Positions 35,011 through 61,168 of a stretch of 64,000 nucleotides of DNA are shown here, piece after piece (positions within the stretch are counted from its first letter, which is position 1; each line of letters opens with the position of its first letter). The stretch covers positions 2,730,001-2,794,000 of the forward strand of contig CM119373.1 of the NCBI GenBank assembly GCA_051294905.1, written 5' to 3'. The DNA comes from Botryllus schlosseri. Taxonomy: Eukaryota. Under the pieces are notes generated by a model, which worked only from the letters and a program-made list of their open reading frames with translations, had not been told where the DNA came from and did not search any database. The translations under genes were made by a program, and so were the position numbers.

Positions 35011-35899
35011 AAAGGTTGACCAAACGCATATGACGGAAACCGAGTTCAGATGTAGATACGATTGTTACATCACACCTTAGGGGCACAGACCTATTGTGCC
35101 CCACTTGCTCGGTAATTTTATGAATAGGAGAGAGTAAATCACCGTTTCTTTATTGTGCGCGGCTTTGAGAGAATAGACAGTGAAAGCTTGTCATGAGCGC
35201 TACCGGGGCATGCCCCGTCTAGGCATTCGCAAAGCGAAAACACAGAAGAGAATTCGATTTTCGCAGAGACTTCGCTATATAACGGCATTTACAGGCGAAA
35301 GGACAAGAAGAATACGATTTTCGCTGTGATTTCGGTATATATAGATTGCTGTGCGTCTATAAATGGTAAACAATTGATATTGAACAGAATTGGTGGGGCA
35401 ATGCCCCAGTTGCCCTATAGGACGAGCCGCCACTGCCAAATGATATCACAGTCTTAACCATAACACGTCTAAGCAAGTATGGAAATAATTTCATCAATAG
35501 CCAATCCCATCTCCTACTGTTCTAAAAAAAACATCCGAAGACTTGATGACATCACAATTACTCCACGCTCAAGTGCTCACAAACCTGTCAAATCCAGACG
35601 GCACTGTGAAGTCACGTGATAATCTTGCGCGGTTTGATTGGTTAATAACGCTACCACCAATCCCTTCGGCCGACGGTGAAAAAATAACAATCGATCTTTT
35701 GAATTCGAGAACGATCAGTTTTTGTACATCAAAGGTGCCGCCTCGCTATAGTGAGAAAACGGCTGGGATCTCTTCTCTCCTTCACTATCTTCGCCTAGTT
35801 CGGTATTAAATACACACAATTTTGTTGACTGGATGGTGTTTGTCGACTACTAGGGTCATGTAAACCGGGTCGATATTTTTTTTTATTCCGTAACTGCCG

Positions 35900-36040
35900 A
35901 CTTGTATATAGGCCCGCTTCTTGTCGTAACCGCAAGTAACCGCAATTGAAAATATTCTTTCTGACGGGACTGATGTTGCTGTTAGTGCGAAATAATTATT
36001 GGCTAAAGTAGCAAGCGTGGGAAGTTTGGAGTTGTAGGTG
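35900..36040 (-). pseudogene. hAT (Ac/ZBED1-like) transposase C-terminal dimerisation-domain fragment
   Basis: KLPTLATLANNYFALTATSVPSERIFSIA...KKRA matches the canonical P.L..LA..YL..PATSVPSER.FS motif. Confidence 0.85.
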
Positions 36041-36999
36041 CGGGATATTAGGGTGACGGGGTTTTGTATTGTGAGTTGTGATGCAACCATGCAGCCTGGA
36101 AGCAGGTGAGGAGCATCGCAAACCTCAAACGTATTGGTCATTGTTGCCCAACCGATTAAGCATCCACACTCTCTTTCTCGTGAGCACTTGCTACCGAGCT
36201 GTTCAGACGGCATGGTTGCGTCACCATACAAAACTGCTTTACAATGCATCATTCGAGGTTGATTTTAGTGGGTCCCAGGACTACGAGCAGAATAAAATTT
36301 ATATTTCCGCAATGAGTGACGCGGTAGCTATCGATCGATACCAATTTTATCGAATTTTGCGTTCGGCAAGCCGGTCACGAATTACCGTGATATTACCATG
36401 AAATAGCCATGTGGAAAGTGTGACGTAGATCGATTTCACTTAGTCGTGAGATTTGCGTGTGTCCACACTATGGTGTAACGGTAAACAGCGGTTAGTTGAT
36501 TGATTGTTGCTAGTAAAATGCAGAAGCGCCAATTATTTTATGTTGTGCTTGTCAGGTCTCAATAATAATGTACTGTGATTGAAATTGTAATTAAGCAAAA
36601 ATTTCATCAAATTAAAGTTACAATTACACGAAAAACGCAATTAATTACATCCAGCTCAATTACAAATTACAAATCATCCAACTCTGATGTACATGATAAC
36701 TATAGCGAAAAGTCAGGCCGTATTATACCACAATGCTGAAGTAGCCTACACGACACCGACAACCACTTCTTGATAACATGCATAAAATACGAATTTCTTC
36801 GAACGTTTTCAATAACTTATTGCAATTAGTTACATATTCCTTTCACCGTACGCAACCTACTTACGTAATCATAAGTGCCGACCGTCGTTGCTGAGTTCGC
36901 AATAAGTTGCAATAAGTTCATTTAGTCACCGCTTGATTTCAAATACCGGAGGGCCGTTGCTCACGAGCGACAAGCACCAATTGAATTTTAAACAATATT

Positions 37000-37804: not shown

Positions 37805-40800
37805 CCCAGCAAACACCCGATGTCCAGTTGACTTCCTGCGGAAAAGACGCAGGACGCCCAGTGTTACTTCCCTGGAGTGGATTTGTCGACTACTAGAAGC
37901 GTCCTAAACACTTCCTGAGTTGGTCTACTATGGACGTGAAGCGACTCCATATGGACTCATTGGATCTGCTGTGGACGTGACATGACTCCCTATGGATGCG
38001 TCAGACCTACTGTGGACGCGACGTGACTCCCTATGGATATGTCATTTACCACCTGTTCTATTCCTCAGGATTACCATATCAGGACTCCCCTTCTAACCTG
38101 GTACAATTACATGGAATTCAACATCATATAAACTAACGAACTGTTTATATTGGGTTACTGTAAAACGACAATTGCAAAACAAAGCACAACATTAACTAAT
38201 GAACTATTGCTGGTAAACAAAGTTCAGGCTTACGTGAAAAATCGATCAGGAAGTCACTACGAATAAATGTGTCAGTGGGAATTTGCATGTAGCAGCAAGT
38301 TCTAAGTCAATTTTATATTACCATTACAAACATTTCAACTGAAGTGCATCATGAAATTAGAAATAAACGTGTCACATGACTTTGAAAAAGTACAACTGCT
38401 AATACAACTAAAACAGGGAAAAGCATGGAGCAATTATAAGTAAAATTTACATTGCATATTATAAAACGATGCATTATTTGCACCACATCATGTTAAGAGC
38501 GCGAGTGCGTATTCGCAATAAACTTGGTTGCAACAACAGTTTTCTTCTTGGTCTTTGTTTTGCCTGAAACATATACAACAATGTCAGCAAATCATTTGTA
38601 GAGCCACTCTGCTGACATAGCACATGAAATTTGCGTCAGAGCTGCTCTAATTTCTATTCCCTCATGCATTAATTGTGATCCGCTACTTCTACTTGTGCTA
38701 AGTGATAATTTATGACGATACTACAATGTCTACTCGAGTACGGGAGCTTCTGACGTTGTGATACAGAGTTTGAAACCCGTCAATCAAATTATATTGTGGA
38801 AACACCTCAAGTACATACTTCAGTACTTTCCAGAACTTCTACTTTACCTAAAATAGTTTTGATAAGCCATGTATATCGCTGCTTGAGTGCTTGAACCCGA
38901 GTAGAAATACATTGCGTTACTCTTACTTGTACTAGACTACTGACGCTACAAATATTTCTAATTGAGTGCTGAACATGATTTCTTTCCTTATCTCTGTTTA
39001 AAAGCATACAACTACGACATTCCTCAAGTCTCCATATTTTGACCATGTCGACACTTGGAAGTAGTTTGATGTCTTGTAAATCGCTATTTATACTATTTAG
39101 TACGGTACTAACGGTGAATACTTTGACCACCTTTATTTGGAACTTATCACCTACTACAACTAGGGCTTGCCACGAATCTGAATAGAGCAACGATAAGTCG
39201 AAACAGATGATCTTTTAGGGTACATAAATTGTATTCAACAAGAATTAGAATTCCGATTCTATGTACCACTGCGAGGCCTAAAAACATAGATTCGTCATAT
39301 CGCAGAACACGGCACATGTAGGACGTAGCTACGCACGATCGTGTGAATGACAAATGTATTGTCTCAAAGTACAATAAAATAGGAATTATCTTAAATCTAA
39401 AAAACATTCTTCGATATGATGTAGAGCCAGTATTCATTTTCTTCGAATTTGCATACGAGATAGATATTTCAACTTTTCCTTGTTCATTATGTTGTCACAT
39501 CATATAGAGCAGAGGCTTCAATTTCAAATGTGGTCGCAGGTCAATTTCCGGATTTTTGACGACGCAGCAAAATAGGGATATTCAATGTATAATTTCCAAG
39601 TAGGCCTTATTTGACGGGAGCTTGCAGACAGGCATTCCACAAACATCTCGAGAATATAATTTACTATTGTATTATTCACGTTTGACACGAAAATAATCAC
39701 AGTTTTGAATATTTCAATAAAATTATTTTTGTGCTGGGCATAATTTGTTAAAATAATGAGTTATAGAGATGATGCAATAGGATGCATCATGACATCATCA
39801 AACTCTGGGTTATACTATTTCAGTTGGTGGACCTTTGACGTGTCACAGTTGTATTTTAAAATCTACTGAAATTTGATCTGGTATCAGAGCAGTTGAGCGG
39901 TGTAGCCTAATCCGGGTTTTGATATAGTCGTGATAAGTAGGCTGTTGCTACTGTCATTACCAAAGTCAAATTAATTCAGAATTAGATGTTGGCTTCGATT
40001 ATTATTGGAACATATCAACAACTTTAGCCATAGTAATAGCATTGTTTCTTATCCTTAGCAATCGCACACTTCATGCTACTCATAAGATTTCTAGCAGCCC
40101 AAAATTTATTTTCAACACAATATCTGATGGTACCTATATTAAAATCAGATAGTCAATTCACATAAAATTGCGCATAGCACGAGAACCACAGCATATAGGT
40201 CTAATTCCACGATGCATATCGTACCACAAAAGGGTCTACGGGCCCTGTTCAAGAACCCCTGGGATAGAATAGAGCACAAAATCTTCTTTTAGAACTTTTT
40301 ACTTCATTTTGAAGTGAATTTTACAAGCCTGGTAAATGGCTAATTGTACAGTAGAAATTCAAGGCGTTGCAACTATTTAAACTCCGGTGCAAACAATATG
40401 TACTTTGACCACCAACTATGATTAAACGCTAAGAATGCCTACGCAACACCTCGACCAAATCTACTTTTTCAAACTTATTATTTGTATACTTTCCAGAAGT
40501 GCATTATCTACTTCCATTTCGAGTAGATCTAACGCAACTTTAAAGTTGTTACCTCTAGGTGTGTATAAATCCATAACATTACATCTACTTCAGTTCAAAA
40601 GATGATTACTTTCACAGCCTCTGGTTTCCATGAAGTGTATTCAATGTTTTATACCTTTTGACTTTATCCTGAGGATGACGCAGCACCGATTTTACAGCAA
40701 CGCTTGTTCCATGTGGCAGTAGTTCTTCCGAACGTTTTTGGTTCCAGTCATCAAGACATACTTTGTACAGTGTTCTTGACGTTGTTGAACACTATCAATT

Positions 40801-43260
40801 GAAGACATTGCCGATCTAAATAATCAAAGATATTATAATGTTTGTAGTGAAGCCATTTGTCAAGAAGCCAAGCCAGGAATCTAGAATATCCTGTAAAAAA
40901 AAAGACAATGAAGTTCAAGCTGGACCATTCGCACATTCTACTCACTACAATGACTAATCAGTAGGGCTGAGCACATTGGTATGGTTACTCAAATCTCGAA
41001 CGAGTATCAATTCTTATGATTCGAGCCAAGTATGTGACTATTTTCAAGACAGCCTACTGAAATTACACGCTCAGTGCCACTATAACAATGCAGTTTATAA
41101 TAAAATTATAGTTCCACCCAGCACGTTTTAGCAGCCCGATTGCGAACCACCGTCAATTGTATATTTCCGCATCATCGATGGCACTTTTTTCAGGGTAATA
41201 AATTGCTAATTAATGAAATATCATAAATCATCATATATAGTTCGTAACTTCAACTTACATAATTTAACATCTTGATCCATGAACAATGCACCACTGCGGC
41301 GCCTTCCTCTGAAGTTTAGAACTACATAACATTGCCTGTTCAATATCTAGTCTCCTGGTAGAAATGAAGTAACTTTGTATACACAAACACAGATATGTCC
41401 CATCCATATATAGTAAGAATCCATTGATAATAAGGTTGTGTTTTCTTATCGACGGCAAGATGACCAATGTGAGCAATCAGCCTTCCATAGGGCCCATCCA
41501 TAGCCTACGTTTTTGATACTGCTGCAATGTAGGCAATGTTTCCGTGTATATATACTAATATCGAAAGTTATAATCAAGCAATAAAAGTATGCACGGAGGC
41601 CGTGCCAACATTGCGGTAACATTGCCAACAACCCGTCTGCACCAGGCCATGAACATGTTAAGTTTATAGAGTTTATAATTGGTTTAGTGTTTGAGTATCC
41701 TTTGATTAGAGCGAGGTTAAATATGGGCTAACAAACTATTATAATGTTGTTCCTAAAATACCCTAAATATAAACCAATATTGCCAAAAATTCTTACATGT
41801 TCACTGAAAGCCTCAATTATTTTATTAACGCTATTATAGATGGTTATGGTTATATACTGTTGTGGAAACAAAAATGCGAAAATGGATGTTAATGTGATGC
41901 TACAATCTTCATGCATCCACAAATTCAGCAATCTCACATTCCATAAAGGAACATTCCACATTTCTGTAAGCCTATACATAACATTTCAAAATTCAGTATA
42001 TACCGCTATGTTATAAAATACCGGTACATTACTTTATGCGGCATCTGGTTTGCTGATTGGGTCCTGCAGTCCTAGGAAATCCTTGTAAAACTTTTCACAG
42101 GATGCACATGAAATGGCAAGTTATTGCTTGTGAGACATTATGGAACAGAGCACAATAAATCAGACTTCTATGATCAATACATTATCATATAGTATCAAAT
42201 GTAGCCTACTACATGAGTTACCAATTAGCAGCGGGTCGATCAATTCCGTCAGTATAGGTGATATTACAGCCGTGTCACTATAATCATATAATCGAATTCA
42301 TTATATCGCATCAGCAGTTCATGATGATCGAGACTATTGCTGTTTATTAAATATAGCACTCAAATACCAAGCTCCCTGCCCTTCCGGTACTCATGATAGA
42401 GACATCTCACAGTCCACGCTGTTAACGTTTCCAATTATGAACTAAACCATTACTGTGATAATTCGTCCCTCCGCCATTGCTACATACGGTGATCAAATTG
42501 AATTACACGCGCGGCGCATGCGCGATGCTCGCCAAATAGAAGAAGGCAGGCTTCTGGTTTTATGGTTGGATGAATCTGAAGCAACAGGCGTGTTCGACTC
42601 CATTATCGAAATAGCCGAGAGGATTGCTTACTGCGTTGTTCCGTGATTGGAATAGTCATCACAATCCCATCATGACGATTATCAAGTTCTGATATCGGAA
42701 TATTTCACATGCATTACGAGTATTTGCCCCTGATGTGGGCATTTTCGACCCAGTAATGTCACATTAAAATAAGCCACTGTGTCTCTGTATCGCACATTAT
42801 ATCGAGCCTCTTTAGCACTGTGCGACCGCAATGATCGACAGCCGGGCTTGTGAAGTTCCACGCAATGAGAAAGTCACACCATATCAACATCCACGGCTTC
42901 ACTCCACTAGATTTCACTTGTATCATGACTGTATTCAACACAACTTATTCAGCATTGACTGCAGAATAATGCACATTTGAGTTCATAGAAACGATTTCCC
43001 AGTAAGGACATCCAAATCAACTCCTGTGTTGGTGGCATCCAGGCATCACACTATTATGACATCCACTGGAATGGTCATTGGTGACTGGCATGGGAGCACT
43101 CTTAAAGTTACTTCCTCTGGGGGTCTCTTGGAGTTACATAATTGGACGTCAATTTGTGACCTACTGAGCAAGTCCTCAGTCACTAAAAGTGGGACGTGGG
43201 ACGACTGGGCACAATTGTGGACGTACCCGTAAGTCCGTGGGAGATCGGGTGTTTGCTGGG
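37805..43260. mobile_element. CACTA/EnSpm-type non-autonomous or decayed element, 5.5 kb
   Basis: Perfect 17-bp TIR CCCAGCAAACACCCGAT; 2-bp TSD AT; subterminal ggacgt/gactcc repeats at both ends, including a ~40-bp tandem array at ~37920-38040. Confidence 0.85.
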
Positions 43261-43391
43261 ATTGTATATTCATTTATATAGGTTAGATATAACAAAGATA
43301 GCAAACACGACGGTCGATAGTTATCATCTACTATAGTCATCAGCCTATAGTAATATAGACGATATATCCAACTCTCGACTCTGTAGATCCC

Positions 43392-43529
43392 TCAACAGTC
43401 TCTCATCTCAATTCTCATACTCATGTGCCCGTAATACTCCACCGGGTGAATGCGGACATATCTGGCGTTGATGGGTGGAGACAGTGCGTTATCAACGATG
43501 GTGTTTTGGTCAGAATTTGCGGAGAATGT
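43392..43529 (-). CDS. CTL-F5/8C lectin gene, last exon (F5/8 type C C-terminus)
   Basis: Acceptor ttccggattcag, phase 0; TFSANSDQNTIVDNALSPPINARYVRIHPVEYYGHMSMRIEMRDC*. Confidence 0.92.
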   Translation of the reverse strand, partial: TFSANSDQNTIVDNALSPPINARYVRIHPVEYYGHMSMRIEMRDC

Positions 43530-43918
43530 CTGAATCCGGAACACATAATAATATTAATAATGCGAATAAAGAATATTATAAGGATATTGAGGGGATATCG
43601 AGAGCTACTATGTAATATCTTACATCGTATCTAGAGGCAACAGGGAATTAAGCTACATCTGCACTGCAACGAAGGGCTGGGCCAAATCGAGTATCTGAGT
43701 GTTTCCATTCTGAATCCAGTATTAGGCTTTGAGCGAAGTCGATTATTATTCGAGGATCACTAATTTTGAGAAATGTTCAAATAGTACCTTTCATGCGACG
43801 AGAAAGAATGTAATGCCAGTTCTAGATTACAATAGTTGTATGTATGTATAGGGGGGTTGGGGTGCTTCTCGGCTAACTGAGGCCTTTTGCACCATGCCTG
43901 TTTTGTTCATTAATACAA

Positions 43919-46900
43919 CTATAAGTCTCTAGTGGACAATATAACAAAGTCTAACAGTGATTGTACCGTGTGAGGACTTTTCAATAGCGAACTAAGCGAA
44001 AGTGGGATATTGTGTCTATGTGCCGATTGAAATAGATGGGCCCTGGCTCGATCGTAGCGATTGCATGAAGTAACAAAATGCTCAAGCGTCTCTAGTTGAT
44101 TACACGTGTCGCACAGTCCCGTTTCATGAAGTCCAAGTCTATACAGATGGGCGTTTAGTCGACGATGCCCCGTTTGCATCCTAATGAGAATGGACGATTC
44201 TCTACGGGAGAGCCGCGGCATGTTCGTATGATCATCGATGCTTGAAAAAATTCGTCGATATTGCGACTCAATGTGGATTTGAGTCCAGTGATTATCCCAT
44301 TTGGTTTTGCAGAATTCGTGGATCAGGGTTCTTGCTTCGTTCGTAGATATGTCCTGTTTTTCTACGTTGTTTGGTAGATCGTTCGCTGCGTCTCGCGCCA
44401 GTTGATCAGCTCTCTCGTTGAAACCAACATTCTTGTGTCCAGGTATCCATACCATCGAAACTGCTTTCTTATTGAAGGCCAAGGCGTTGTTGCGTTCTTG
44501 TATATCGATGACGATGTTATCCGTTGTATTGGTCGTGTTGATTGCTGTCAGAGCGCTTTTGCTGTCTGAAAAAATCGTGATGTTAGAATTTGGCAAGCAA
44601 TTTACCGTAACCCAGTCCAACGCTGCTCTTATTGCAATGAGCTCTGCTGAAAATATCGACAATGCGCCCATTAGTTTCTGGTTCCAGGAGTGATTTTCCT
44701 CGTCCACGTAGAAGGCAGCTCCACATTGGTTATCGTTCTTTGACCCGTCTGTATAGATTTTTATAGAGTCAGCGTAATGATCGTCAATATACTGTTCGCA
44801 CTCTCGTTTGACGATTTCGGGATATATTATGTTCCTAATCAATGATTCGATTTTCAAGTCAATCGTGCACCTCATTGCTTTCCATGGTGGCGTTGGCAGG
44901 AGATTTCGTTTCGCTATACCGAAATTCTGAAATATAGGAGCACGTTTCGTCAGCATGTTAAATGTAATAAAATTTTCCGAGTCAGGAAAGATTTCATGCC
45001 ATGATTCCTGTGTTATTGATTGACATGGATGGGAATCGTTAGACAAAATGACCGTCCTATATGTTAAGCATGCCTGGAGATGTCTAAGGTGTATGGGCAT
45101 TTCTCTGCACGAATGTTGTAGTGCATATATCGGGGTACTTTTCATTGCTCCGCAACATATTCGGAGCGCGGTATTCTGGATAGTGGCGATGGGTCGTCTG
45201 ACGTACTTCGGGGAGAACATGTACGCTTCCATACAGTATTCGATGACCGACCTTATCAACACCTTATACAGAGTCAAGAGACAAGTTTTGGAAGCACCCC
45301 AATTAGTTCCTGACAGACAGCGCAGCACGTTCAATCTCATTGTGCATTTCTTGACCACAGCTTTGGAATGATGAGCGTAGTTCAGTCGAGAGTCAAAAGT
45401 GACTCCTAGGTATTTGTACTGCTTGACAAGAGTAATATCGGAATTGTTGAGCGTTAATTGGACGGAAGGAATTTTCCTTTTCCTCGAAAAAATTATTGCC
45501 TCGGTCTTTTTGGTATTTAGACGGAGTCCCCATTTCTTGCACCATGATTCTATTGCGGTTAATGACTCTTGGATCGCGGTTCTTATTTTATCAAACCTGA
45601 GGTCAGATTCCCAGATGCAGACATCATCTGCAAATACGTTTATATTAGTTTGAATCGTTTCGGGGAGATCATTCATCATTACGGTATACAGTAACGGACT
45701 TAACACGCTTCCCTGGGGGATGCCGTTTTCAATTTTATGACTGTCCGACAACTTATTTCCTACTCTGACCTGAAATGTGCGGTTATGTAAGAAGCTGTGC
45801 AGCCATCGCAGGAGTTTTCCGGATAAGCCCATTTTTTGCAGTTTGATTATTATTCCATCCCTCCAAACACGATCATAGGCCTTTTCGATGTCCAGGAATA
45901 CACAGATTGCGGATCTTTGATTTCCCAAGGCCTTGTATAGATCATCATGTAACGCCATCACACTATCTTTAGTTGACCTGCCATTGCGAAATGCGCTTTG
46001 AGATGGGTGGAGGAGTTTTCGGTTTTCAAGCCACCAATGAAGCCTTTTGCTGATTAGCCGTTCCATTATTTTGCACAGATTGCTGGTAAGAGCGATCGGT
46101 CTGTAACTCCATATGGAATTTAAAAATTGGCCGTTCTTCGGGATAGGTACGTTGATGGAGTGATGCCATGCAGATGGGCACTGAGCTGTCTTCCACACCT
46201 CGTTAATGGATCGTAATACACGGTCTAGACAGGAGGGTGGTAAATTCATTATCATTTGATAGCATATTCTGTCGTGGCCGGGAGCTGTATTTTTCCGAGT
46301 CTTCAGTGTTTGCATAAGTTCCGAAGTACTGAATTCTATGTTTATTCCTGTGGTGTCATCTTGCATTTCGCATAAGCGTTGATGCATTGCTTGCTTCATA
46401 GCATCGCGTCTATGTCGAAATTCTGGTTGAAGGCTATCATCACTACTGACACTCGCAAAGTAGGATGCCAGTGCATTTGCTTTGTCCTGCTCTGTTGTGT
46501 GCACTTGGTCGCCGACTTTGAGGGAGGTAATACGACTCCAGGTGCGACTTCCGCTCATGGATTTGACTACGTGCCAAACACGCGCCAAGCTTGAATTTTC
46601 AGTGAGGGAGCTGCAAAAGGTTTCCCAGTATTGCTTTTTGGCGACGAGAACAGTTTTCTTTGCTTGTGCGCGTCGACGTTTGAAGTTGATAACGTCCTCC
46701 GTGGTAAAGGTCAGCTTCATCTTTTTGAAGGCCGCACGTTTGAGGCGAAGGGATTTCGAACACTCTTTATTCCACCATGGAACAGAGCTTTTGGATATCG
46801 GTCTAGATTCCGGAATGCTCTTCACTGCGGCGTCTATAATGATACTTGATATCTCCTCCATTTTTGGAGGTGTATGGCAGGCGACGGAAAATCGCTCCCT

Positions 46901-47629
46901 GCAGAGGCTTTTGAATTTATCCCAATCCGCGCGATGAAATGACCAACTCTTCATGTATGTCTGCGAGGTATCAACCGTTACGCTGAGTTCTGTGAGCACG
47001 ACGTAATGATCACTTCCTAACAAATAATCAGTAACATCTGTTGAGACGTTGTGGGCCAGGTCTTTAGTGCATATTGTCAAGTCCAATAACGAACTATTGT
47101 CGCGAGATTGGGATGAAATGTCAATCCTGGTCGGGATAGTGGTGTTTATTACCACAAAATCCTTAGTATCAATAACATGGTAAAGATGTCTACCGCAATT
47201 GTTTATTCGGTCGCTCTTCCACAAGGGATGGTGGGCGTTAAAGTCTCCGACTATAATGCACTTTGTGGTGAAGGGGCGAAAACATCGTTCGAGGAGCATA
47301 CGCGATAGGTTGCGATTTGGAGGGATATAAACATTCAAAACAGTAATCTGGTCAAGTCTGATGGCTAGCATCTCTATTGGGTGTACACTTTCTATATCTA
47401 ATTGAACGAATGATAGATTCGATTTCACAAAGAAGCAGATGCCACCGCCATGGATGTCCCGGTCTCTCCTAACGAGGTTATAGTCTTTGATTTTAGGGGT
47501 GTACTTATTAACCAAGTGAGTTTCCTGCAGGGCGAGTAAATCAGGTTTTGTATCAAGTCTTTCTATGAAATATTTCAATTCCGGGATTTTTCTATAAATG
47601 CTCCTACAATTCCATTGAAGTATTCTTAA
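43919..47629 (-). CDS. LINE ORF2: AP endonuclease - reverse transcriptase - RNase H - CCHC finger
   Basis: LRILQWNCRS (upstream of the track's TTG start), LQETH, GDFNAHH, GSDH; RT PQGSVLSP and FADD; RNase H YTDGS, FSDS, WIPGH..NERAD; CDTC..ETLEHFVTSC. The true start is unresolved. Confidence 0.96.
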   Translation of the reverse strand, partial: LRILQWNCRSIYRKIPELKYFIERLDTKPDLLALQETHLVNKYTPKIKDYNLVRRDRDIHGGGICFFVKSNLSFVQLDIESVHPIEMLAIRLDQITVLNVYIPPNRNLSRMLLERCFRPFTTKCIIVGDFNAHHPLWKSDRINNCGRHLYHVIDTKDFVVINTTIPTRIDISSQSRDNSSLLDLTICTKDLAHNVSTDVTDYLLGSDHYVVLTELSVTVDTSQTYMKSWSFHRADWDKFKSLCRERFSVACHTPPKMEEISSIIIDAAVKSIPESRPISKSSVPWWNKECSKSLRLKRAAFKKMKLTFTTEDVINFKRRRAQAKKTVLVAKKQYWETFCSSLTENSSLARVWHVVKSMSGSRTWSRITSLKVGDQVHTTEQDKANALASYFASVSSDDSLQPEFRHRRDAMKQAMHQRLCEMQDDTTGINIEFSTSELMQTLKTRKNTAPGHDRICYQMIMNLPPSCLDRVLRSINEVWKTAQCPSAWHHSINVPIPKNGQFLNSIWSYRPIALTSNLCKIMERLISKRLHWWLENRKLLHPSQSAFRNGRSTKDSVMALHDDLYKALGNQRSAICVFLDIEKAYDRVWRDGIIIKLQKMGLSGKLLRWLHSFLHNRTFQVRVGNKLSDSHKIENGIPQGSVLSPLLYTVMMNDLPETIQTNINVFADDVCIWESDLRFDKIRTAIQESLTAIESWCKKWGLRLNTKKTEAIIFSRKRKIPSVQLTLNNSDITLVKQYKYLGVTFDSRLNYAHHSKAVVKKCTMRLNVLRCLSGTNWGASKTCLLTLYKVLIRSVIEYCMEAYMFSPKYVRRPIATIQNTALRICCGAMKSTPIYALQHSCREMPIHLRHLQACLTYRTVILSNDSHPCQSITQESWHEIFPDSENFITFNMLTKRAPIFQNFGIAKRNLLPTPPWKAMRCTIDLKIESLIRNIIYPEIVKRECEQYIDDHYADSIKIYTDGSKNDNQCGAAFYVDEENHSWNQKLMGALSIFSAELIAIRAALDWVTVNCLPNSNITIFSDSKSALTAINTTNTTDNIVIDIQERNNALAFNKKAVSMVWIPGHKNVGFNERADQLARDAANDLPNNVEKQDISTNEARTLIHEFCKTKWDNHWTQIHIESQYRRIFSSIDDHTNMPRLSRRESSILIRMQTGHRRLNAHLYRLGLHETGLCDTCNQLETLEHFVTSCNRYDRARAHLFQSAHRHNIPLSLSSLLKSPHTVQSLLDFVILSTRDL

Positions 47630-48915
47630 TTTACCTTTGAAGGCGAAGCTTGTGTGAGGTCCATTGCGATAGAAGACTCGTCGGTAGCTTGTGGCGAATT
47701 TTGTCCGCCGTACGTCCTGTGTCGGCCGATGCTTGAGGCTTCTACTCGATTGGCGGGATTTAGTTGCAATCCGGTAAATCCTATTCCAAGTTCCTTCTGA
47801 GCGGTCTCCGATATGACTTTTTCAATGTCAATTTCCTGTCCTTCGGTGATTGATTTAATTGTACTTTTCAATACGCCTGCGATAAAGCTGAACAGCGCCG
47901 ATGTTGATAAGGTTATGCTATCATTCGATGGCAATGGGTGGTTTGTGGGGATGACTTGTCGACTGATTGGAGCTGATCTTACAGCTACGTTACGATGCTG
48001 CTGGTGAAATACTTGGTTTGAGGTTTGGTTACTGCCATCCTTTTGCAATGGTGGGAATTCGTTTTCAGATAAAACATTTGGGATTTGTCTCTGTTCTTGT
48101 TCTATTCCTCTGGCAGTCCAGTAGTTGACATCGGAGTTTGCCATTATCGCGTGGATTCGAGTTTCCTGTCGATACCTATTACAACCCGCGTAGCCGGCTG
48201 AATGTGGTTGGCCACAGTTAACACAATTGGCTTGGTTCGTGCAGTTCTTGTATTCGTGATTATTACCGCATTTAGTGCACCGTGCTGAGCTACGGCAATG
48301 CTTAGCCTTATGACCGAATCTACTGCAATTGTAACAGCGCAAGGGTGGTGGGTTGTATATCCTGGTCCTGAACCGCAAAAAGCCTATATGTACGACAGTG
48401 GGAAGCATGTTCGCTGAGAAACATAGAAGAACCGATCTGCTTGGAATAACTCCGTCCTTGGAGCGGTATGACAACCTTTTGACATATATAACGTTGTCAT
48501 TCGATAGTGCTTGCCGTATTTCTTCTTCACTAAGATCCATGGGAACGTCAGAGATGACTCCGCGCATTTCCGGTGGTTTGGTTTTGTAAAGCTCCACTTT
48601 GACCTCAATCTTATTCTCCTTTGTCCCCAGATCATTACATGATAGTAGTTTGGCCACCTGTCCGCTGTTTGCACATTTTACGCAGAGATCTCCTGATGGA
48701 AGGACACGTACCTCACTGTAAGGGCCTCCTAATATCTTGATCAAATTCCTGTTGATGACCAAAGGATTTTGACGACGAATTGGCTTTGTGATACCCGTTA
48801 TGACTACAGAATGCTCATTGAATCGACTTAATCCATGAGAAGCTGACTCCTTTGGCGCAGGTTCATCAGTAGAATTTTCGGCGGGGCGTTTTACCGCCCC
48901 TCTTCCTTGTGACAT
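47626..48915 (-). CDS. LINE ORF1 gag-like nucleic-acid-binding protein
   Basis: 429 aa with three zinc knuckles: CYNCSRFGHKAKHC, CTKCGNNHEYKNC, CVNCGQPHSAGYAGC. Confidence 0.95.
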   Translation of the reverse strand: MSQGRGAVKRPAENSTDEPAPKESASHGLSRFNEHSVVITGITKPIRRQNPLVINRNLIKILGGPYSEVRVLPSGDLCVKCANSGQVAKLLSCNDLGTKENKIEVKVELYKTKPPEMRGVISDVPMDLSEEEIRQALSNDNVIYVKRLSYRSKDGVIPSRSVLLCFSANMLPTVVHIGFLRFRTRIYNPPPLRCYNCSRFGHKAKHCRSSARCTKCGNNHEYKNCTNQANCVNCGQPHSAGYAGCNRYRQETRIHAIMANSDVNYWTARGIEQEQRQIPNVLSENEFPPLQKDGSNQTSNQVFHQQHRNVAVRSAPISRQVIPTNHPLPSNDSITLSTSALFSFIAGVLKSTIKSITEGQEIDIEKVISETAQKELGIGFTGLQLNPANRVEASSIGRHRTYGGQNSPQATDESSIAMDLTQASPSKVN

Positions 48916-49324
48916 TTATAACACGCTTTTACACGTCCACTTATATCGTAGGCCCGTGTTTCCGAATGGTAAATCCTCCTTGCTTACTAATTGAAGCAGA
49001 GTACGTGCGACGCTCGTTCGGCTGACAGAAGTCGGATTGATTGAGATGGTGTTGCGGCTTACATTCGAATCTTACCTTCTCGCAATTCCACCAAGCGAAA
49101 TGAGGTTACAATAGTTATTATCTGGTATTTTGCGATAATAACTATTTCATTTTGCATTTCACTTTTTACTGAATCTTTCGTAGGCTGCGATACGGCCAAT
49201 CGAAGTTTACAGCCTTCGGTAGTGGAAAATGGTATCGAAACTATATATTTCATGCTGATGAACAACGATTATTGGCAAGAAAAGTACAATTTCAGTACTC
49301 GGAAATTCCTTCTTTCGTCACGAC

Positions 49325-49838
49325 TATCGGGCTGGGCACAATGATTCGAGCACTCGAATCTGAATCGAGTATTAATTGTAATGATTCGAAGCGAGTTGTG
49401 AAAGACGATTTTTTCGAGTACTGAAATTATACGTTCCTCGCCACTGGAAGTTATTCTATCAACGAGAATATTAGTTTCGACAGGAATTTTCAATGTTGAC
49501 GCCTTGAAACCTTGATTGGTCGTATCGTATCATACGAAACATATAGTGCAAAGCTGCTAGCGTTACTGGAACTAGCATATTTCCGAAGTCATGATCGTAG
49601 CACAACATTGTCACCAAGTGCAACAAAATCGGTGAGCTCGAAAAAATACCAAAGTATCTTTAATGTGATGAATAACAGGCATTAAATTATTTGTGGTCGC
49701 ATAAAAGGTGCATATTTGAACTTTCACATATTACCTTGTGTTGTGACGTCATAATGAGTGATTCTCGATTACTCGACTCGAAGCATATTCCGTGATTCAG
49801 AATCGAATTACTCAGGTACTCGATTTTGCCCAGCCTTA
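49325..49838 (-). mobile_element. MITE family N inserted into an oppositely oriented family N remnant (~49285-49912)
   Basis: Exact TSD GTCACGAC; the flanks rejoin to match 9800-9904. Confidence 0.85.
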
Positions 49839-50012
49839 GTCACGACTCGATTCGAATGAATAAAAATATTACTCGATTCAGATTCGAGTGCTCGAATCAT
49901 TATGCCTATCCCTTCTGCTGTATCTGCACTTTTCAAAGTAGGAGACCGGAAGTAAAAGAAGGCTAACGGAGTACAAGAATGTAGTCGATTATATATTGTC
50001 ATTTATACCCAC

Positions 50013-50179
50013 TTTATCTTCATCCAATTCTTGGTAATATTGCATTTGCGAAGTAGCATTTCCAAACGATACGTGATAACTCGTGACCCATTCGGCATAT
50101 ATTCTCCCTCCCTGGGTTACAATGCCGGTGATTGTCCTGGGAGCCAGGTAGTCGACCTGTATCCACTGGTTTTCGTTAT
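50013..50179 (-). CDS. CTL-F5/8C lectin gene, exon 5 (F5/8 type C core)
   Basis: NNENQWIQVDYLAPRTITGIVTQGGRIYAEWVTSYHVSFGNATSQMQYYQELDEDK; acceptor ctgtttag, donor gtgggt; phase 1 to 0. Confidence 0.93.
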
Positions 50180-50237
50180 CTAAACAGACATTTGAGTAGT
50201 CCGAAGTTGCTTCGATTCGACATTGATTCTATCTCAC

Positions 50238-50366
50238 TCTCGGCTGTGCACCAAGCTCCATAGGCGTTGAGAACTGCGTTTGCATTGGAACAGAGAGGAT
50301 GTACGGAAGTGGTGGATATCTGTGAAGGCATGATCGTGCCGTTGTAAAGTCCTACGTAGCACACCT
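50238..50366 (-). CDS. CTL-F5/8C lectin gene, exon 4 (F5/8 type C N-terminus)
   Basis: VCYVGLYNGTIMPSQISTTSVHPLCSNANAVLNAYGAWCTAE; 129 nt, phase 1/1; acceptor ttttctctgacag, donor gtgaga. Confidence 0.9.
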
Positions 50367-50435
50367 CTGTCAGAGAAAACGTATACTGTTGACCATACGT
50401 TTCCAAACATCCATACTCAAGCTGAATTTACATAC

Positions 50436-50640
50436 GTGGGGTCCAACACAGCACCCCGTTTTTCTTTGAAGTGGAAGATTTATCTGTGCAACTACTTTCG
50501 CTACATGTCCATTCCTGCGAAGCAGTCTCATATCTCGTATGAACGCAGTAGTTTAGGAAAATATATCCATGATCATTCGAAGAATCATTGGAATAGCATT
50601 CGGAATAGTCACAGTAGTTGCTGTTGTCTGTTTCATATGT
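50436..50640 (-). CDS. CTL-F5/8C lectin gene, exon 3 (C-terminal half of the C-type lectin-like domain)
   Basis: TYETDNSNYCDYSEC...EWTCSESSC...KKNGVLCWTP; acceptor tttctattttcag, donor gtatgt; phase 0 to 1, compatible with both neighbours. Confidence 0.85.
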
Positions 50641-51253
50641 CTGAAAATAGAAACGGAAAATGCTCAGGTCAGTAGAAATCAATGTTATATTGTGCATAAT
50701 CTACTAAGATCATAAGACTTTTTATATGCCTTATAGGATTCCTATGTCGGTTTGCATTGACTCGATCTTGGAATGTTGTGTAATGCCCGTTATCGATGCC
50801 TCATTCAAAATGCAGGCCTTTAAAAACCTCACCCAGGTTACTCATCATGCGAACCTCTAGAATCATTTTTAGCTGCGTTAATTGAGGGGAGTGAATTGAG
50901 ACCGAATTGCCTTTATGCTCTACCATATTTCCGCTTGTCGATGTCGAATATTGATCTGGACTGCTCCTCATCGACAACCAGTACAACTCCGTCAAGAAAT
51001 AGAGATCGCCGCGCTTCAAACTTCCGGCGAAAGTAACAACCGAGGTGGAAGCATTGAAGTGAGGGAGAATGAAAGCTATCTGTCTCCCATAGTACACGAA
51101 TAAGAATGATAAAACCACGAACGGTAGCGATTGTGAGCGGGCAACAATATTGATCGTTTCGACACCAGCCTATTTAGTCATAGTACGATCTTTCGCACTG
51201 TGCATTGGATTGAACCGATGCGTATACTGTTGCTGGTTTATGGTTATTAGATT

Positions 51254-51784
51254 CAGGGGTGGGCAACTTCTCAGGTCAGATATGGGAAAATGTAGTAACA
51301 CTAGGCGGGCCGAATTGCAGAATCGATACATTAATCGCATATCTATCCACCTATATTAGTAATAAATCGTATTTAATGTAAATTCCAAGCTTAAAGTATA
51401 GAGACCAAAACAGTATTTAATGAGTTTATTACCATTATTTACTTCTATAGCTGTTGAAGTCAATCAGACATCAATGGTCGATGCAAGCTGTCAACAAGTT
51501 CTTAGAACTCTGGCTGTATGTCAGATGTAGAAAACCTTAGTGAAGACTGATCATGAACATCAGTTATATTGGAACAGAGCCTTGTCTTGTTTATGTTCAT
51601 GGTCGAAAACGTTTACTCGCAAAAGTATGTGGACCCGAATAGAACAAGTAGTTTCACGACCATCGTTGTCACGTTAGCAAACTTGGATTCATTCTATGAC
51701 GCATCATAATTTTCAATACCTTCATATTATAATTTCACTTTCATGGTAGAGACTCTTTGCGGACCACTCGAAATCCCGTCCCTG
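51254..51784. mobile_element. Charlie/Buster-type element family H, deletion derivative
   Basis: Left end caggggtgggcaacttctc homologous to 54390-54520; carries a transposase remnant; right boundary uncertain. Confidence 0.7.
51460..51690 (-). pseudogene. Charlie/Buster (GTF2IRD2/SPIN-like) transposase C-terminus with two stops
   Basis: KLLVLFGSTYFCE*TFSTMNINKTRLCSNITDVHDQSSLRFSTSDIQPEF*ELV. Confidence 0.85.
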
Positions 51785-51792
51785 CTTTAAGA

Positions 51793-53393
51793 CATGGATT
51801 CCCAACCTAGGGGTTGCGACCCCATGGGGTCGCTTGACTATTCTGTGAGGTCGTGGAGACGAAATTTAAATACAAATTACTATTGCGAGAATTAAATTAA
51901 TGGGCGGCTAAAACTACATGTAAGGAATGGAAACCCGCCGAACAGGTCTCAGATCAGTCGAAGTGTCAATTTAAAGCGCTAGCAACTATAACACAAGAAT
52001 GGTATCTGTTTATCTCTATAAAGGTTATAGGGCAGTGTGAATAGAAATCTACAGGAATTTCTCATTTGAGGAAAACTACGAGTGAGCCGCTATTGCTATG
52101 TGTTAACAGTATATATACGACCAGCGCGGCTGAGTAACTTAATGCTGTGTTTCTCGTAACGCAAAATTTCACTGAGCGCTACTTGACTACGTCGATTGGG
52201 TAGAGATTAACATTCAGCATCGTTTGAAAAGACTAGGGATGGTGTGAACCTCTGAAAGGTTCAGGTTCGTGTAAACGCGAACCTTTTTGAAAGGTTCTGT
52301 GTGAACGCGAACGTGAAACTCATGACGTGACGTGACGTCATCTTGCTAACTCCAACCCTATCTTTCAATGAAGTGATAGCCTACATTAATGTACCCGATA
52401 CCTAGCGACGACTCGGGCCACATAAAGCAACAATGCTGCAGTACATATTGGCGTTTTAAACGGCGCTAAATGTATCAACTATGAGGCAATCAAAGGATAT
52501 AATAGTCCCATAAAATCAACATCTTTCGTCGCTTTGCCAACAATTTCGACGAGGACTTACCAGGGAATATACGCTTACCCCTTAACGGTCTAGGCCAGAT
52601 CGGACAATGTATTCGGTGTATGAGTATTGCTACATTGATATTGAGCAGAGTGTAAATGGGTTTCCATACTTGCTACCGATATTACCCCATTAAGAAGTTA
52701 TGCAGCAGTAGCCAACCCCTCAATCGCACGGATTTGGTTTTAATGATGCAGTAAAGATGTTGAGTCAAGATTGACCCCGTACACCTTCTCGAATTTTTAC
52801 AAAAACGATATCAATCTTATTGATTGGTTGAATAACCATCATTCGCTGACTACGTATTTCGCTCGTGATGTTGTGTGATTGCGGGTCAAGCTCACAGCAC
52901 AGACTCACTAAATATTCACAAACGGAAAGCTGGATATTTCGAGCAAACTTTTGTAAAAAAGCAAGTAAAACTTTTGAGATTGTCAAGGTGCATGTTCGTT
53001 TAGAGTTGATTTTTATTGCTGCCAGCGCCATGCATAGAGCGGTCCGCAGTTAAAATGCAATAAATTTGAACCAAAGATATTATAATGAAGTGAAAATTGT
53101 AATATATGAAAAAAGGTTCACAGTCCGGAACCAACCAAGGCTCTGTTGTGAGAGCGAACTTCTAAATTACCGAGGCTCACACACGGAACGCGAACGTGAA
53201 CGTTCACACTATCCCTAAAAAAGACCTATATATTTTGCACTTGTCTTGATAAACAGAAGTTCATAATTGCATAATTCCTGTTATTGCGCACATATTTGCC
53301 TGCTTCCCCCATAGGCCGTGGAAGGTGGGTAGTGGAACATTTTTTTGAAATCGAAATTTTGGGTCGCGACCATAAAATGTTTGGGAACCCCTG
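51793..53393. mobile_element. Charlie/Buster-type MITE family J, hosting a family A copy
   Basis: Ends catggattcccaac / tttgggaacccctg; gggtcgcg motifs; TSD CTTTAAGA / CTTCAACA. Confidence 0.75.
52234..53217 (-). mobile_element. MITE family A, copy 3 (inverted)
   Basis: TIR tagggatggtgtgaac / gttcacactatcccta; TSD GAAAAGAC / AAAAAGAC. Confidence 0.9.
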
Positions 53394-53465
53394 CTTCAAC
53401 AAAAATGAAACAGTTCGACTTTCTCATGATCATTATTTTGACAGCTACAAATTATTCGAACTCAC

Positions 53466-53680
53466 CGATGCGGTCCATATTTCAATATACGACCAATACT
53501 GAATAGTGCTAATTGCAATCCGGCACGCATTATTGAAAATGCTCATATAGAGATTAGGCGTTGAAATTGTTGCTAATTGTGTGCTATTTCTTTCGCAAAT
53601 TCTAGTCGCCTCGGTGAAATTGATGTCCCGCGTTTCCCGTAGTTTGATCAAGTAGCATCCTCCATTGAGATAGCACAATT
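53466..53680 (-). CDS. CTL-F5/8C lectin gene, exon 2 (N-terminal half of the C-type lectin-like domain)
   Basis: LCYLNGGCYLIKL..INFTEATRICERNSTQLATI..IEIWTAS matches CTL C-Y, A..C....LA.I and W motifs; donor gtgagt in phase 0 joins to give WTASTYE. Confidence 0.88.
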
Positions 53681-53765
53681 CTAAATTTGTAAAAAAAGTT
53701 ACAGCACAATTCTAAATTTGTAAAAAAAGTTACAAAACTGATATCATCGTAGAAATTGAAAATAC

Positions 53766-53831
53766 GTAGGTACGATTCATAGTAGGTGAGAGATGTAGCG
53801 TATAAGAAAATGCATCGAAGACGGGGATCAT
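53766..53831 (-). CDS. CTL-F5/8C lectin gene, probable exon 1 (frame and donor ambiguous)
   Basis: ATG 53831 in accATG context; donors gtattt (53765) or gtacct (53773); TATA 50 nt upstream. Confidence 0.45.
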
Positions 53832-53880
53832 GGTTGCAATCAGTCACTCTCAGTAGAACAGCGAATTAGTTTCACACAAC

Positions 53881-53888
53881 TTATATAA
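53881..53888 (-). promoter_or_regulatory. Candidate TATA box of the lectin gene
   Basis: TTATATAA 50 nt upstream of ATG 53831. Confidence 0.4.
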
Positions 53889-56057: not shown

Positions 56058-58765
56058 GTCTACAATTACATGCTGACAGAATCTTTCCTGACATGCATCG
56101 ACCTGCGTGAGTTATGGGGTCCGTGACGAATGTTTTACGTTTTAGGGGGTGTAAAGTAAATTTGGATCGACATTTGCATTTTTCTATACCACCTTTCAGA
56201 CTAACAAACCCGCCATAATTTTTAATGTGAAGTATAGGGCTTGTATCAGTGTATATAATGGCACATATTTTTTGAATCAATACCATCCTCGAATGGACTA
56301 TTTTCAATTCAATTACAATATTTATGGGGTGGGGGACCTATGGCACCACAGCCAAATCAAGCAAAATAGATGGACCAACTAATCACTTAACAACAAAAAC
56401 TCGCCTACATATATATAGGCTGTAAATCATAGTTACCTGTGGTGTTTCATCGCTATTACGAGGTATTTGAAAGTCAAAATGTCGATTTGCGGGTAATATG
56501 TATGTGGCATTAATTTTGTAAGTTTAGGCGTAAATCAAAACATGATTTTATACCAACATTTGAGTTGATATAATCTATTTTATTCTTGAAGGTAGCGACG
56601 AAACATTCTTCATGGGCTTGCTGCAGCTTAGCTTACATTACACAACAAAACAAGTTAACAAATTTGAGTTTTTGAGCGATGTCTCATAGGTCCCATGGTC
56701 GTGTGCCTTTGGACCCACCGGGTGGGGACCGATGACACGTTCGAGCAACAAATTTCAAACCTTTATAAATATTTCTTGAAAAGGCGGATATTCATGTAAA
56801 TGTCCGCGATAGGTAGAGCTTGTATCGAAGTGTTGAGACAGCAAAAGATCTGCTGTTCTAGGCTGAAGATTTGAGGGCCAGAGATCATTTTGCAATTTTT
56901 GATCCATCGGTACCACATCTCCCCTACTTCATAAGTTGTATGTTGAAAAGACTCGCACTGGTCGTGCTATGTAGTTGAAATCGTGGTGTCGCAGTGAGAT
57001 CGGTACATTTGCCGCGACCTGGCTATCACAAATAAACTTTCGACTAAATACCCAGCACTTCAGTGTCTATTTTCCCGCTTTCATAACTGCGATCTCTTAA
57101 ATAATTCGTGACTTAAGTAATGAGTTAAATCGGAATATCGCAAGTACTGATTATTTATCCATAAATACATTCGAATTATGTCTCTCTGAAAAGCCAGTGT
57201 TAGCTCAATTCTACAAATTGTGTTGGCGATATTCAAATTGCGGAATCTAAATCACTACCGCATCTGTCAGCTGAAACTCAGAGAATAGTTTGCACGATAG
57301 CAGACAGATCTCATTTCTAATGAAATATTAAGTATATTTGATTTCCACAAATTCGCCGTATAAATCTTCAGGAAACTTCTCAATTTTGAGACTTATATCA
57401 GTCGATAGGTTTAAGGAAGCCCACTTTCCGTGACGTAGTGCACACTTTCTGATCAACTCTTATGTAGCCTACTTTTATATAAACATTCGAATAGTAGACC
57501 ATTGAATGAGTGAATGAATGTTTCTGTTGAAAAATCACACGAAAGGTTAAAGTGGATTTGGCTTCATAAAAATCGTGCAACTTGAGACTTACTAACATAT
57601 ATTTCCCTGAGAGCCATAACAACCATACAAGAGCCTTATGTGACTCGCGAGCCATAGTCCCCGACCCCTTCCAAACATAGACAATCCGATGGAGGCGAAA
57701 CGATCAGGCACCATGCGATGTAGATCCTTATACCAATCCCCAAACCATGCGGCGGCCAACATTGCTCGCCGACACATGTGTGTGGATTGCACAATTTAAG
57801 TAGCTGGACACGAGGTGATATACCTAAAGCCCGAATCTTTACAGATAAAAACGATTGCTGTGTGGCATGACAGGCTACACGGGCACATGTTCATCCCTAT
57901 ATGGAACTGCATTAAATGTTTGATGAAAAATGGGAAATGCAATGTGACGGTGCATATTCGTCAGCTTCTCTTTCAAATGAGTCGGCATCTCATCGACGCT
58001 ATTTTACGGACCCCATTCAATCCCCAAGACTGGGCAATGCATGACCTATATGCTTTCAAGCTAATTCGTGTCTGACGTTGGATTAATTCACCAACCTATC
58101 TGGGTGCAGCTGTCTGAGTACGGGAAAAGTTGTCACAATTTGAATATTTGAGATGATGATTCATCAATCCTTGATCACCGTCTTGGGCCAAATATTTGAT
58201 TTAGCACGAATTTAAAAAGGTTTGAAGAGGCGGAGATTTTGATACATATCCAGTAGAGTTGTTCAAAAATAACGTTTTTTTCCAAATTTCAGTCGCTTGG
58301 TGATAAAATTGTCAGGTTGCCTAAAAAACGCCACATATTTTTTTCAGGGGTCTGGAGGAACCGCAGTAAACCTCCCCCCTTAAAGCTGTGACACACTGTA
58401 AACTGAAACGCGTGCATTTATGCACCTAAAAAACACACAATATTCGAATTTTTTTTTAGATGCCACATTGTGTGGTAGTGATGTATGTCATAATATTGTG
58501 TGGTCTGAAGTGGCATGTCCGTACCTATCACTGCAGAGCTCGAAATTATGTACCTGATATAACTCCACAGGCTCTCGAAACAATATTTTATTTTAAAAGA
58601 ATCAGCTTTAAAATGTACGTTAGTGCAAATTGCCGTTATAAATATGGCAATAAAAATTAAAAACAACATTTTTTTGACACAGTAAGACAGGATTTTATAC
58701 AGTAACAACAGAGCTTCTTGGAGATACAGAACTTCAATATACAAATGAATAGTATATGTTCAATG

Positions 58766-59347: not shown

Positions 59348-59663
59348 AATACTATGTAACAGTATAAAAGAACTGGATTTGGAACTAAAGCAAAGTGTAT
59401 GTACAGTAATGTTGCCAATAAATATTGTTTCTCACGAATTGACTAGTTACATGATCAAATGATTGAATTGCCAAAAAACCATAGTAAACCAATTTCGGCT
59501 CAGCAGTATGTTATTTTGGAACAGCCTTAATGTACAGTGCCACTAAAAAACGAAAAGTTTACAAATTGAAGGCATAGCAAAAATCTAGCCACAAAAAAAC
59601 AAATTATTGTGCAAATGCAAAAAATCCAATATCTACACTACATTACATGACAAAAGAAAGCAA

Positions 59664-60156
59664 TGGGGCCAGGTACAATGATTCGAGTACTCGAATCTGA
59701 ATCGAGTAATAATTTTAATGATTGGAGTCGAGTAGTAAAATTCGATTTTTTCTAGTACTGTAATTATACGCTCCTCGCCACTGCACGTTAATTTATCAAC
59801 AATAATTATAGTTTCGATACAATTTTTCCGTGAAAGCCTTGAAACATTGACTGGCCGTATCGCAGCATGGGCGACATACAGTACAACGCTACGAACGTTA
59901 CAGAAAATATACATTTCCCAAGTCGTGATCATCTCACAACATTGTCACAAAGTGCAATGAAACCCGTATGGCCGAACAATCTTTGATGTGATCAATAACA
60001 GGCATTATATTATTTGTGGTGGCATGAAAGGTACATTTCTAAGCTTTGACATATTACTTTCTGTTATTACGTCATAATGAGTGATACTCGAATACTCGAA
60101 GCATTTTACGTGATTCAGAATCGAATCAATCAGGTACTCGATTTTGCCCAGCCCTA
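59664..60156 (-). mobile_element. MITE family N copy
   Basis: Colinear with 49325-49838; TSD GAAAGCAA / GAAAGTAG. Confidence 0.82.
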
Positions 60157-60649
60157 GAAAGTAGTAGTAGTACTAACAGTACAAGTACTTGGAGCAGGGG
60201 AGATTAATTAGCCTACATTTTCCCAATCGATTGCTGGACATTTTGATATTTTTTTCCAAAAATTGATGAACTTGTTCGACTGAAATCGCGAATTTTTATC
60301 ACCAACAAGGACACGTTGAATGAATGGCATTATTTGAAAGACCTTGGGATAACTAAGATCCCATGCGTAATAGCATGCTACGAGATCAATTATCCTCTAC
60401 GGTCTTCTTTCGTTTTCGGATCTGCGCTTGGCGGTGATGCTATTGGCCGAAATCCACGATTGTTCATCTCCATTCTCTTGACGTGCAATCAAAAGATGAG
60501 GAGGAGTCAACTTTGAAGTCGTTAAATCGACTGTATGTGCCTGGAATTAAAACAATATGTTAGCTTAAAATTATATTGCTAAATATTCACGTGCAAATCC
60601 AGAGCACATGACCAACTTCAGCTAGAAATGCTTTTATGAGACTTCTCAT

Positions 60650-61168
60650 CTGGGTTGTAATGACTTGAGTCACGACTTTCTGATGACTCGAATTGACTCG
60701 AGTCATTTTATCAAAACAAAAAAATAACTCGACTCGACTTGGATATGAGTCATTGCACATGACTCGAACCAAGTCATATGAATCGAGACCCAGACGGCCA
60801 ACAAAGACATTTCATTGTAATTTCGAAGAATACTAAAATAACCACACTATTGGCATTTCTTCTATTGGTACTGGCACTTGAAAATGCGACCTGAAACTAC
60901 TAAAAGTAAGGAAAATTAGTGTATTATAAATGCGAACCATTCGATATCACCAAACAGTGATAAAAAGTGGATTTAACAGGACTTCAACTGGAAACTGAGC
61001 AGTCAACACAATGACTTGGACTCGGACTCGAGTCATAACACCATGACTCGAACCTCTACTTGTTGACTTGAACTAGGAGTTGACTCGGTGGTGAATTGAA
61101 AATAACTCAACTTGACTCGAGTCAATCCTATAAAAGTGAGATTGAATTGCGACTTGGTTACGACCCTG
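60650..61168 (+). mobile_element. MITE family B2, copy 2
   Basis: Colinear with 33662-34255; exact TSD CTTCTCAT. Confidence 0.9.

Follow-up and report, generated by a model that had tools for sequence, protein, structure and literature searches.

C-type lectin-like domains (CTLDs) and F5/8C (FA58C, discoidin) domains are known to co-occur in larger proteins. The Fugu protein DEC-205-FUSE carries CTLDs and FA58C in one predicted chain, as the gene described here does; unlike this gene, it has about 2000 residues, up to 15 well-conserved CTLDs and an LCCL domain, and the accessible text of that report presents it as a prediction without cDNA support (PMC514892). Drosophila Uninflatable likewise holds one CLECT and two FA58C domains in a single protein, yet according to the available portion of its description it is a giant transmembrane protein with CUB, CCP, HYR and EGF arrays (PMC3340373). 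Chimeras of a CTLD with an F-type lectin domain, from Hydra, Drosophila (CG9095/furrowed) and teleosts, also join a CTLD to a jelly-roll domain, and the CTLD of CG9095 also lacks sugar-binding residues; their jelly-roll, in the text available, is of the fucose-binding F-type (PMC5712786), whereas here it is factor V/VIII C-like. TC14 of Polyandrocarpa misakiensis is a small tunicate C-type lectin with non-standard calcium ligands, but it is reported in the accessible text to keep a Glu-Pro loop and to bind calcium and galactose (PMC3293724). Here the corresponding region holds no proline; moreover, TC14 is single-domain, and exon A of the present gene gave no match to it in a PDB search. A minimal pair of a CTLD and an F5/8C domain with a tunicate-type lectin was not found in the literature searched, and PMC8878817, PMC3269628 and PMC7460484 held nothing to the point. 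Pairs of CTLD and F5/8C domains may occur in other invertebrate genomes and may be listed in architecture tables for amphioxus, sea urchin or cnidarians.

The gene lies on the minus strand of a 64,000-nucleotide stretch of the Botryllus schlosseri genome (the window, to which all positions refer). We put at about 60% the probability that it is functional and encodes a small two-domain recognition protein that is soluble and probably secreted.

Gene model and 5' end

A preliminary description had proposed five exons joined through GT-AG introns with consistent phases into a frame of about 284 amino acids. All five were found where it had placed them, and when joined they read openly through 283 residues to a terminal stop codon. 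The exons, designated A to E in order of transcription, and the sequence behind them are as follows.

53466..53680, minus strand, exon A: probable N-terminal half of a divergent long-form C-type lectin-like domain, with C2, C8, C28, C52 and W68
50436..50640, minus strand, exon B: probable C-terminal half of the lectin-like domain, a proline-free six-cysteine loop region ending in GVLC
50238..50366, minus strand, exon C: start of the F5/8C domain, assigned by position, with C142, C165 and C179
50013..50179, minus strand, exon D: middle of the F5/8C domain
43392..43529, minus strand, exon E: end of the F5/8C domain, with the final Cys and the stop
42343..43391, minus strand: probable 3' UTR, reaching the first AATAAA at 42348

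An AG acceptor precedes every exon and a GT donor follows the first four (GTGAGT, GTATGT, GTGAGA and GTGGGT for exons A to D), giving introns of 2825, 69, 58 and 6483 nt. Since exon A ends in phase 0 whereas exon C, which is in frame with phases 1-1, starts in phase 1, the intervening exon must have a length of 3n+1. Candidate stop-free AG..GT segments of that phase and of 60-400 nt were enumerated between exons A and C and passed through a simple splice-site filter of our own making. One of the 59 passed, 50640-50436, which is exon B. Since the sole passing candidate is the exon already in the model, the five-exon arrangement is more than chance. The exon with extra cysteines, described earlier as the third, exists as described and is the second of the five listed; it counts as third only when a first exon at 53831 is included. 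The gene is a case missed by ORF-based annotation.

Counted from exon A on, the protein is acidic, of about 32 kDa, and has five N-glycosylation sequons. Its maximum 19-residue hydropathy is 0.91, with no membrane segment in exons A-E. A membrane receptor was ruled out, as the five exons contain no hydrophobic segment.

The listed exons hold no start codon and exon A opens in phase 1, so an upstream exon is needed. Two features just upstream bear on it.

53766..53831, minus strand: candidate first exon, with an ATG at 53831 and an A at -3
53672..53734, no strand assigned: perfect 31-nt tandem duplication (Tandem Repeats Finder, 2.0 copies, 100%)

The ATG at 53831 is a candidate start, with a TATA-like box at about 53881-53888, some 55 bases upstream. 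The 31-nt duplication doubles the acceptor of exon A, so that AGs end at both 53712 and 53681, and two routes lead into exon A: donor 53765 with acceptor 53712 (a 54-nt intron, resembling the 58- and 69-nt introns of the gene) and donor 53773 with acceptor 53681 (a 93-nt intron). Through the 54-nt intron, it is solely the 31 added bases that put the ATG in frame. Neither leader from this ATG, by either of the two open splice routes, is clearly hydrophobic as a signal peptide would be; the frame shifted by one base after the ATG reads basic and then hydrophobic. This arrangement may reflect a frameshift since compensated or a slip in the assembly; alternatively, the segment would be an internal exon and the first exon would lie elsewhere. 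Among 251 open ATG..GT combinations, four other hydrophobic candidates passed the filter, one of them at 58669. Read in one frame, the minus-strand segment 53846-53766 has a pair of cysteines with the spacing seen where a lectin domain begins. A branch-point-like CTAAT and an AG stand before it at 53849/53847; it is a possible internal phase 1-1 exon or a remnant.

The five exons may alternatively be the 3' end of a longer mosaic, with other domains upstream and partly outside the window. Exon A opens in phase 1 without a start codon, the segment 53846-53766, with its two cysteines, would be an internal phase 1-1 exon behind the CTAAT and AG at 53849/53847, the relatives of exon A are multi-domain proteins (710-1437 aa), and the published proteins with CTLD and FA58C are large. 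However, no Pfam family scored above cut-off in 89 minus-strand frames of 35 or more residues between 53.7 and 64 kb, tblastn with the gene and two CTLD relatives turned up no additional exon of either domain type in the window, and the TATA-like box and good ATG context lie just upstream. We regard a longer mosaic as improbable. Hidden extra lectin or F5/8C exons within the introns were likewise sought by tblastn and by a Pfam scan of frames, and none was found.

The lectin-like and F5/8C domains

The preliminary description had called the N-terminal part an atypical C-type lectin. Exon A was searched against 1.84 billion representatives, and all three library matches were CTLD proteins carrying Lectin_C; these relatives are multi-domain proteins of 710-1437 aa. 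The best was Styela clava XP_077974709 (LOC144430564, P0001; E 1e-8, 27% over four stretches). Against a profile built from three of the four repeats of that protein, exon A scored 27.3 bits, a value reached by none of 926 scored shuffles. The Atlas lead for exon A was Lectin_C (0.94, the family being found on 11% of members), and a PDB search gave a weak LY75 alignment (E 0.9). These matches fit an N-terminal CTLD half made of strand 1, helices 1-2 and strand 2. In Pfam, exons scanned one at a time gave no match to Lectin_C, and Xlink came up at E 0.02. On the Styela profile exon B was at chance level: its 0.3 bits were equalled or exceeded by 295 of 956 scored shuffles. It also found nothing in Pfam, the Atlas or pairwise BLAST, and its closing GVLC is its only sequence link.

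Exons A and B were also modelled as two chains, and the pair scored 0.67 against 0.13 for the best control. Of 78 solved complexes 51 reach the mark for such scores, as do 2 of 108 mismatched pairs; on eukaryotes the figures are 39 of 65 for solved pairs that lack a like complex and 2 of 126 for unrelated pairs. Contact agreement between runs was at least 59%, with partner pLDDT of at least 42. The surest modelled contacts were C28-C136 (0.7 A expected error), strand 9-12 with exon B residues 62-66, and W68 with the last strand. The predicted C28-C136 contact and the pairing of first and last strands follow the C1-C4 closure of CTLDs as given in the accessible part of PMC9965136, and this modelled closure would place WTAS at the WIGL-like position. 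In the same model exon B had pLDDT of 42-48 and its loop region was uncertain, including the five further cysteines at 81, 86, 103, 117 and 122, among which a C2-C3 disulfide at the base of the long loop would be sought. One-chain folds were of low confidence (pLDDT 44.5 for exon A with a five-row alignment, 30.7 for Styela P0007). The two-chain pass may reflect likeness to solved lectins, by which halves of one domain can score well. Exons A-B thus very probably belong to the CTLD superfamily: the matches of exon A and the closing of the A+B model bear out the first description of this part as a C-type lectin, while exon B brought no sequence support by itself, and the second half of the fold rests on the modelled A+B closure.

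The repeats of the uncharacterised Styela protein XP_077974709 are divergent CTLDs (Lectin_C E 5.6e-9), and like exon B they end in GV[LV]C and have no EPN/QPD. Unlike the present gene, the Styela protein starts with a signal peptide and a coiled stretch, followed by four lectin domains in tandem, with no F5/8C domain; its repeats do not have the extra loop cysteines of exon B, whose match to them was not significant.

WTAS in place of WIGL, and the absence of EPN/QPD and WND, were confirmed in the translated exons by motif search, as the preliminary description had it. EPN, QPD and QPN, and equally WND or W-x-D, were absent from the spliced protein. No proline occurs between residues 42 and 138, that is, in the long loop, which indicates that the usual calcium/sugar site is absent. 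By these motifs, exons A-B are not a classical C-type carbohydrate-recognition domain. The long loop is rich in Asp, Glu and Asn, and sugar motifs of invertebrate CTLDs vary, according to the accessible part of PMC9965136; a non-standard calcium site may therefore exist.

The F5/8C half was clear in Pfam, the check that had been proposed for it: exon D matched PF00754 positions 33-80 (32.8 bits, E 8.4e-8) and exon E positions 86-127 (31.9 bits, E 1.7e-7), each above the gathering cut-off of 28.2. Their solved relatives are factor V and VIII C domains, lactadherin, retinoschisin, neuropilin and discoidin, with 42 distinct PDB sequences matched by exon D and 52 by exon E. On these matches the predicted protein is an F5/8C family member. 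Exon C alone gave no Pfam or PDB match and was assigned by position, before PF00754 position 33, as the missing first third of the domain. C142 and C283 stand at the domain ends, C283 aligning with the terminal Cys of factor VIII C domains, and a C142-C283 disulfide bond is likely. Loop 3 has Ile/Tyr at the place of an aromatic or hydrophobic pair in factor V. Loop 1, the other site of the exposed hydrophobic spikes of phospholipid-binding C domains, falls in exon C, for which the PDB search gave no alignment.

The motif for fucose binding in F-type lectins is His...Arg-x-Asp...Arg/Lys. An F-type fucose lectin was ruled out, as neither of the two forms of the motif that we considered matches.

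The searches turned up no relative that shares the two-domain layout. Searches against longer proteins gave 47 candidates for exon A and 2 for exon D, and a search of the Styela repeats against shorter proteins gave 814; none of these candidates was scored, so that each is weak evidence of absence. A metagenome scan returned 0 of 169 stretches with exon A and 1 of 98 with exon D, a weak 24-residue match at 50% in L001.

The last intron and RNA evidence

The last intron is for the most part an intact LINE, which the preliminary description did not mention.

43838..49105, minus strand: intact full-length LINE of 5268 nt in the last intron, on the gene's own strand
47626..48915, minus strand: LINE ORF1, 429 aa, two CCHC pattern matches, no Pfam match
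43919..47821, minus strand: LINE ORF2 frame, 1300 aa from stop to stop, with predicted AP endonuclease, reverse transcriptase, RNase H and C-terminal CCHC

ORF2 matched PF14529, PF03372, PF00078 (E 1e-42) and PF00075 and has FADD and CCHC motifs. By its predicted domains, the element is an APE-type non-LTR retrotransposon with RNase H, probably of the I-like group. It is flanked by an 11-nt target duplication (49116-49106 and 43837-43827) and has a short TACA-repeat tail; without it, the intron would be about 1.2 kb. The element has other copies, since contigs of runs X1 and X23 matched it with about 2-6 differences in every 100 bases. The insertion is probably recent, and the intact LINE can serve as a recent-insertion marker to distinguish haplotypes of this gene. 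Short interspersed repeat families, which occur elsewhere in the window, fill introns and the upstream region at 49162-49912, 52232-53228, 56058-56928 and 59662-61157.

Reads of four runs that share one species label (X1, X4, X8 and X23, X1 being putatively RNA) were aligned at a likeness of at least 88%. In X4, 53 reads joined 43527 to 50013 with two letters between, which is the D-E junction. RNA-seq junction mapping, proposed earlier as a check, thus recovered D-E; A-B, B-C and C-D were absent from the 15 of 306 joints and the 12 of 209 between-letter entries shown. The D-E reads differ from the window by one letter, which changes the first codon of exon E, and need not come from the LINE-bearing allele. 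By rough arithmetic on 666-base bins, X4 depth was 32-70 per base over exons C-D and about 47 over exon E and the UTR; the latter figure comes from the bin 43100-43765 and so takes in the UTR as far as 43100. The exon B bin had depth 0, where about 15 would be expected as the bin mean, and exon A showed no excess depth with X8 as the repeat baseline. The exon B bin was also 0 in X8 and X23, in which the gene is nearly silent. In X1 the same bin had depth 2.63, at most about 8.5 over exon B, and contig sequence was present; one X1 contig links 43427 to 50011 across a stretch that does not align, which is what a diverged relative would give.

Because X4 gave no exon B reads, its transcript is probably that of a diverged allele or paralogue. 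Most simply, this relative would have a similar tail joined to a head that is diverged or different, a pattern that weighs against the A-E model being expressed as written in that animal.

The same reads could mean that exons A-B and C/D-E belong to separate transcripts, the F5/8C exons being used with a different head and the fusion existing on paper only: exons D-E and the UTR had about 47-57 reads per base in X4, with 0 over exon B and no excess over exon A. However, the introns that separate exons B, C and D measure just 69 and 58 nt and their phases match, and exon B contains no stop and has no other acceptor partner. Since reads less than 88% alike went uncounted, a diverged allele explains the exon B gap equally well. 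Separate transcripts are, in our view, highly improbable.

A second alternative is that the copy in the window is a decaying allele or paralogue, silent or mis-targeted, with a related copy expressed instead. This reading rests on the fresh sense-strand LINE, the duplicated acceptor and the lack of a usable signal peptide. The LINE is intact, lies on the gene's strand and puts four AATAAA signals inside the intron. The frame shifted by one after ATG 53831 is the more signal-peptide-like, and splicing of one 54-nt intron would connect this frame to exon A; it is the 31-nt duplication that puts the present ATG in frame, a one-in-three chance event. The X4 reads, besides differing in the first codon of exon E, leave exons A-B uncovered. 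Against decay, all 283 codons are open, all four introns have good splice sites, X1 has contig sequence over the exon B bin, and the true first exon may be elsewhere, given the other hydrophobic ATG..GT candidates, including that at 58669. We consider a decaying copy unlikely, and a functional gene remains our preferred reading.

Because the tail was seen in X4 and the head was not, a further possibility is that the gene belongs to a polymorphic family of tunicate recognition proteins in which the tail is constant and the head varies; these would be calcium-independent, diversifying binders in an invertebrate chordate. Alleles or paralogues would share the F5/8C core exons and the 3' UTR at a likeness of at least 88%, the lectin exons would diverge past recognition or be swapped, and the long loop would be rebuilt as a proline-free, cysteine-stapled surface. 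We consider this unlikely.

Genomic neighbourhood and proposed role

The preliminary description had seen a hint of a defence-gene neighbourhood, which the scan did not bear out. None of 123 frames of 62 or more residues in 1-43390 matched an immune family, in a scan that would miss short exons; a defence-gene cluster is not supported. The only match above cut-off in that region was a hAT transposase remnant at 35809-36264 on the minus strand (PF05699, E 2.8e-5). A peptide gene at 14222-14452, 29 kb off on the plus strand, has a hydrophobic start and an Arg/Trp-rich basic stretch and no Pfam match. We take it to resemble an ascidian antimicrobial precursor. An overlapping frame that ends at 14427 has an acidic tail, as such precursors do, so a frameshift is possible at 14222-14452.

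Two exon-like segments with good splice sites and no Pfam match above cut-off lie at about 62280-62382 and 62990-63120 on the minus strand, where depth and many variants in the aligned runs suggest a repeated element or another gene. Downstream, minus-strand frames at 41731-41985, 38810-39214, 26145-26384 and 25236-25445 look like exons of a further gene, with no Pfam match. Three diverged copies of a 199-nt unit occupy 34422-35008.

The earlier proposal of a small, probably calcium-independent two-domain protein thus survives in its CTLD fold, F5/8C domain, solubility and missing canonical calcium site; its defence context was not supported. As a functional recognition protein, the product would pair the F5/8C domain with a lectin fold and would be secreted; its binding loop may be stapled by disulfides, and the two domains could bridge two surfaces. 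C-type lectins of tunicates take part in immunity, both those that bind sugar and those that do not, according to the accessible part of PMC5465252, and FA58C repeats recur in marine adhesive proteins in the portion of PMC10057474 available. We rank innate recognition first among possible roles, with about half of the weight, and a matrix, tunic or adhesion role second.

The gene is probably a real, modest variant on familiar parts. If it is ordinary, it adds one more shuffled lectin architecture in tunicates. If the head should prove hypervariable, it would belong to a family of soluble binders relevant to the recognition of microbes or of self and non-self; tunicates are the invertebrates nearest to vertebrates, so a variable binder family there would matter more.
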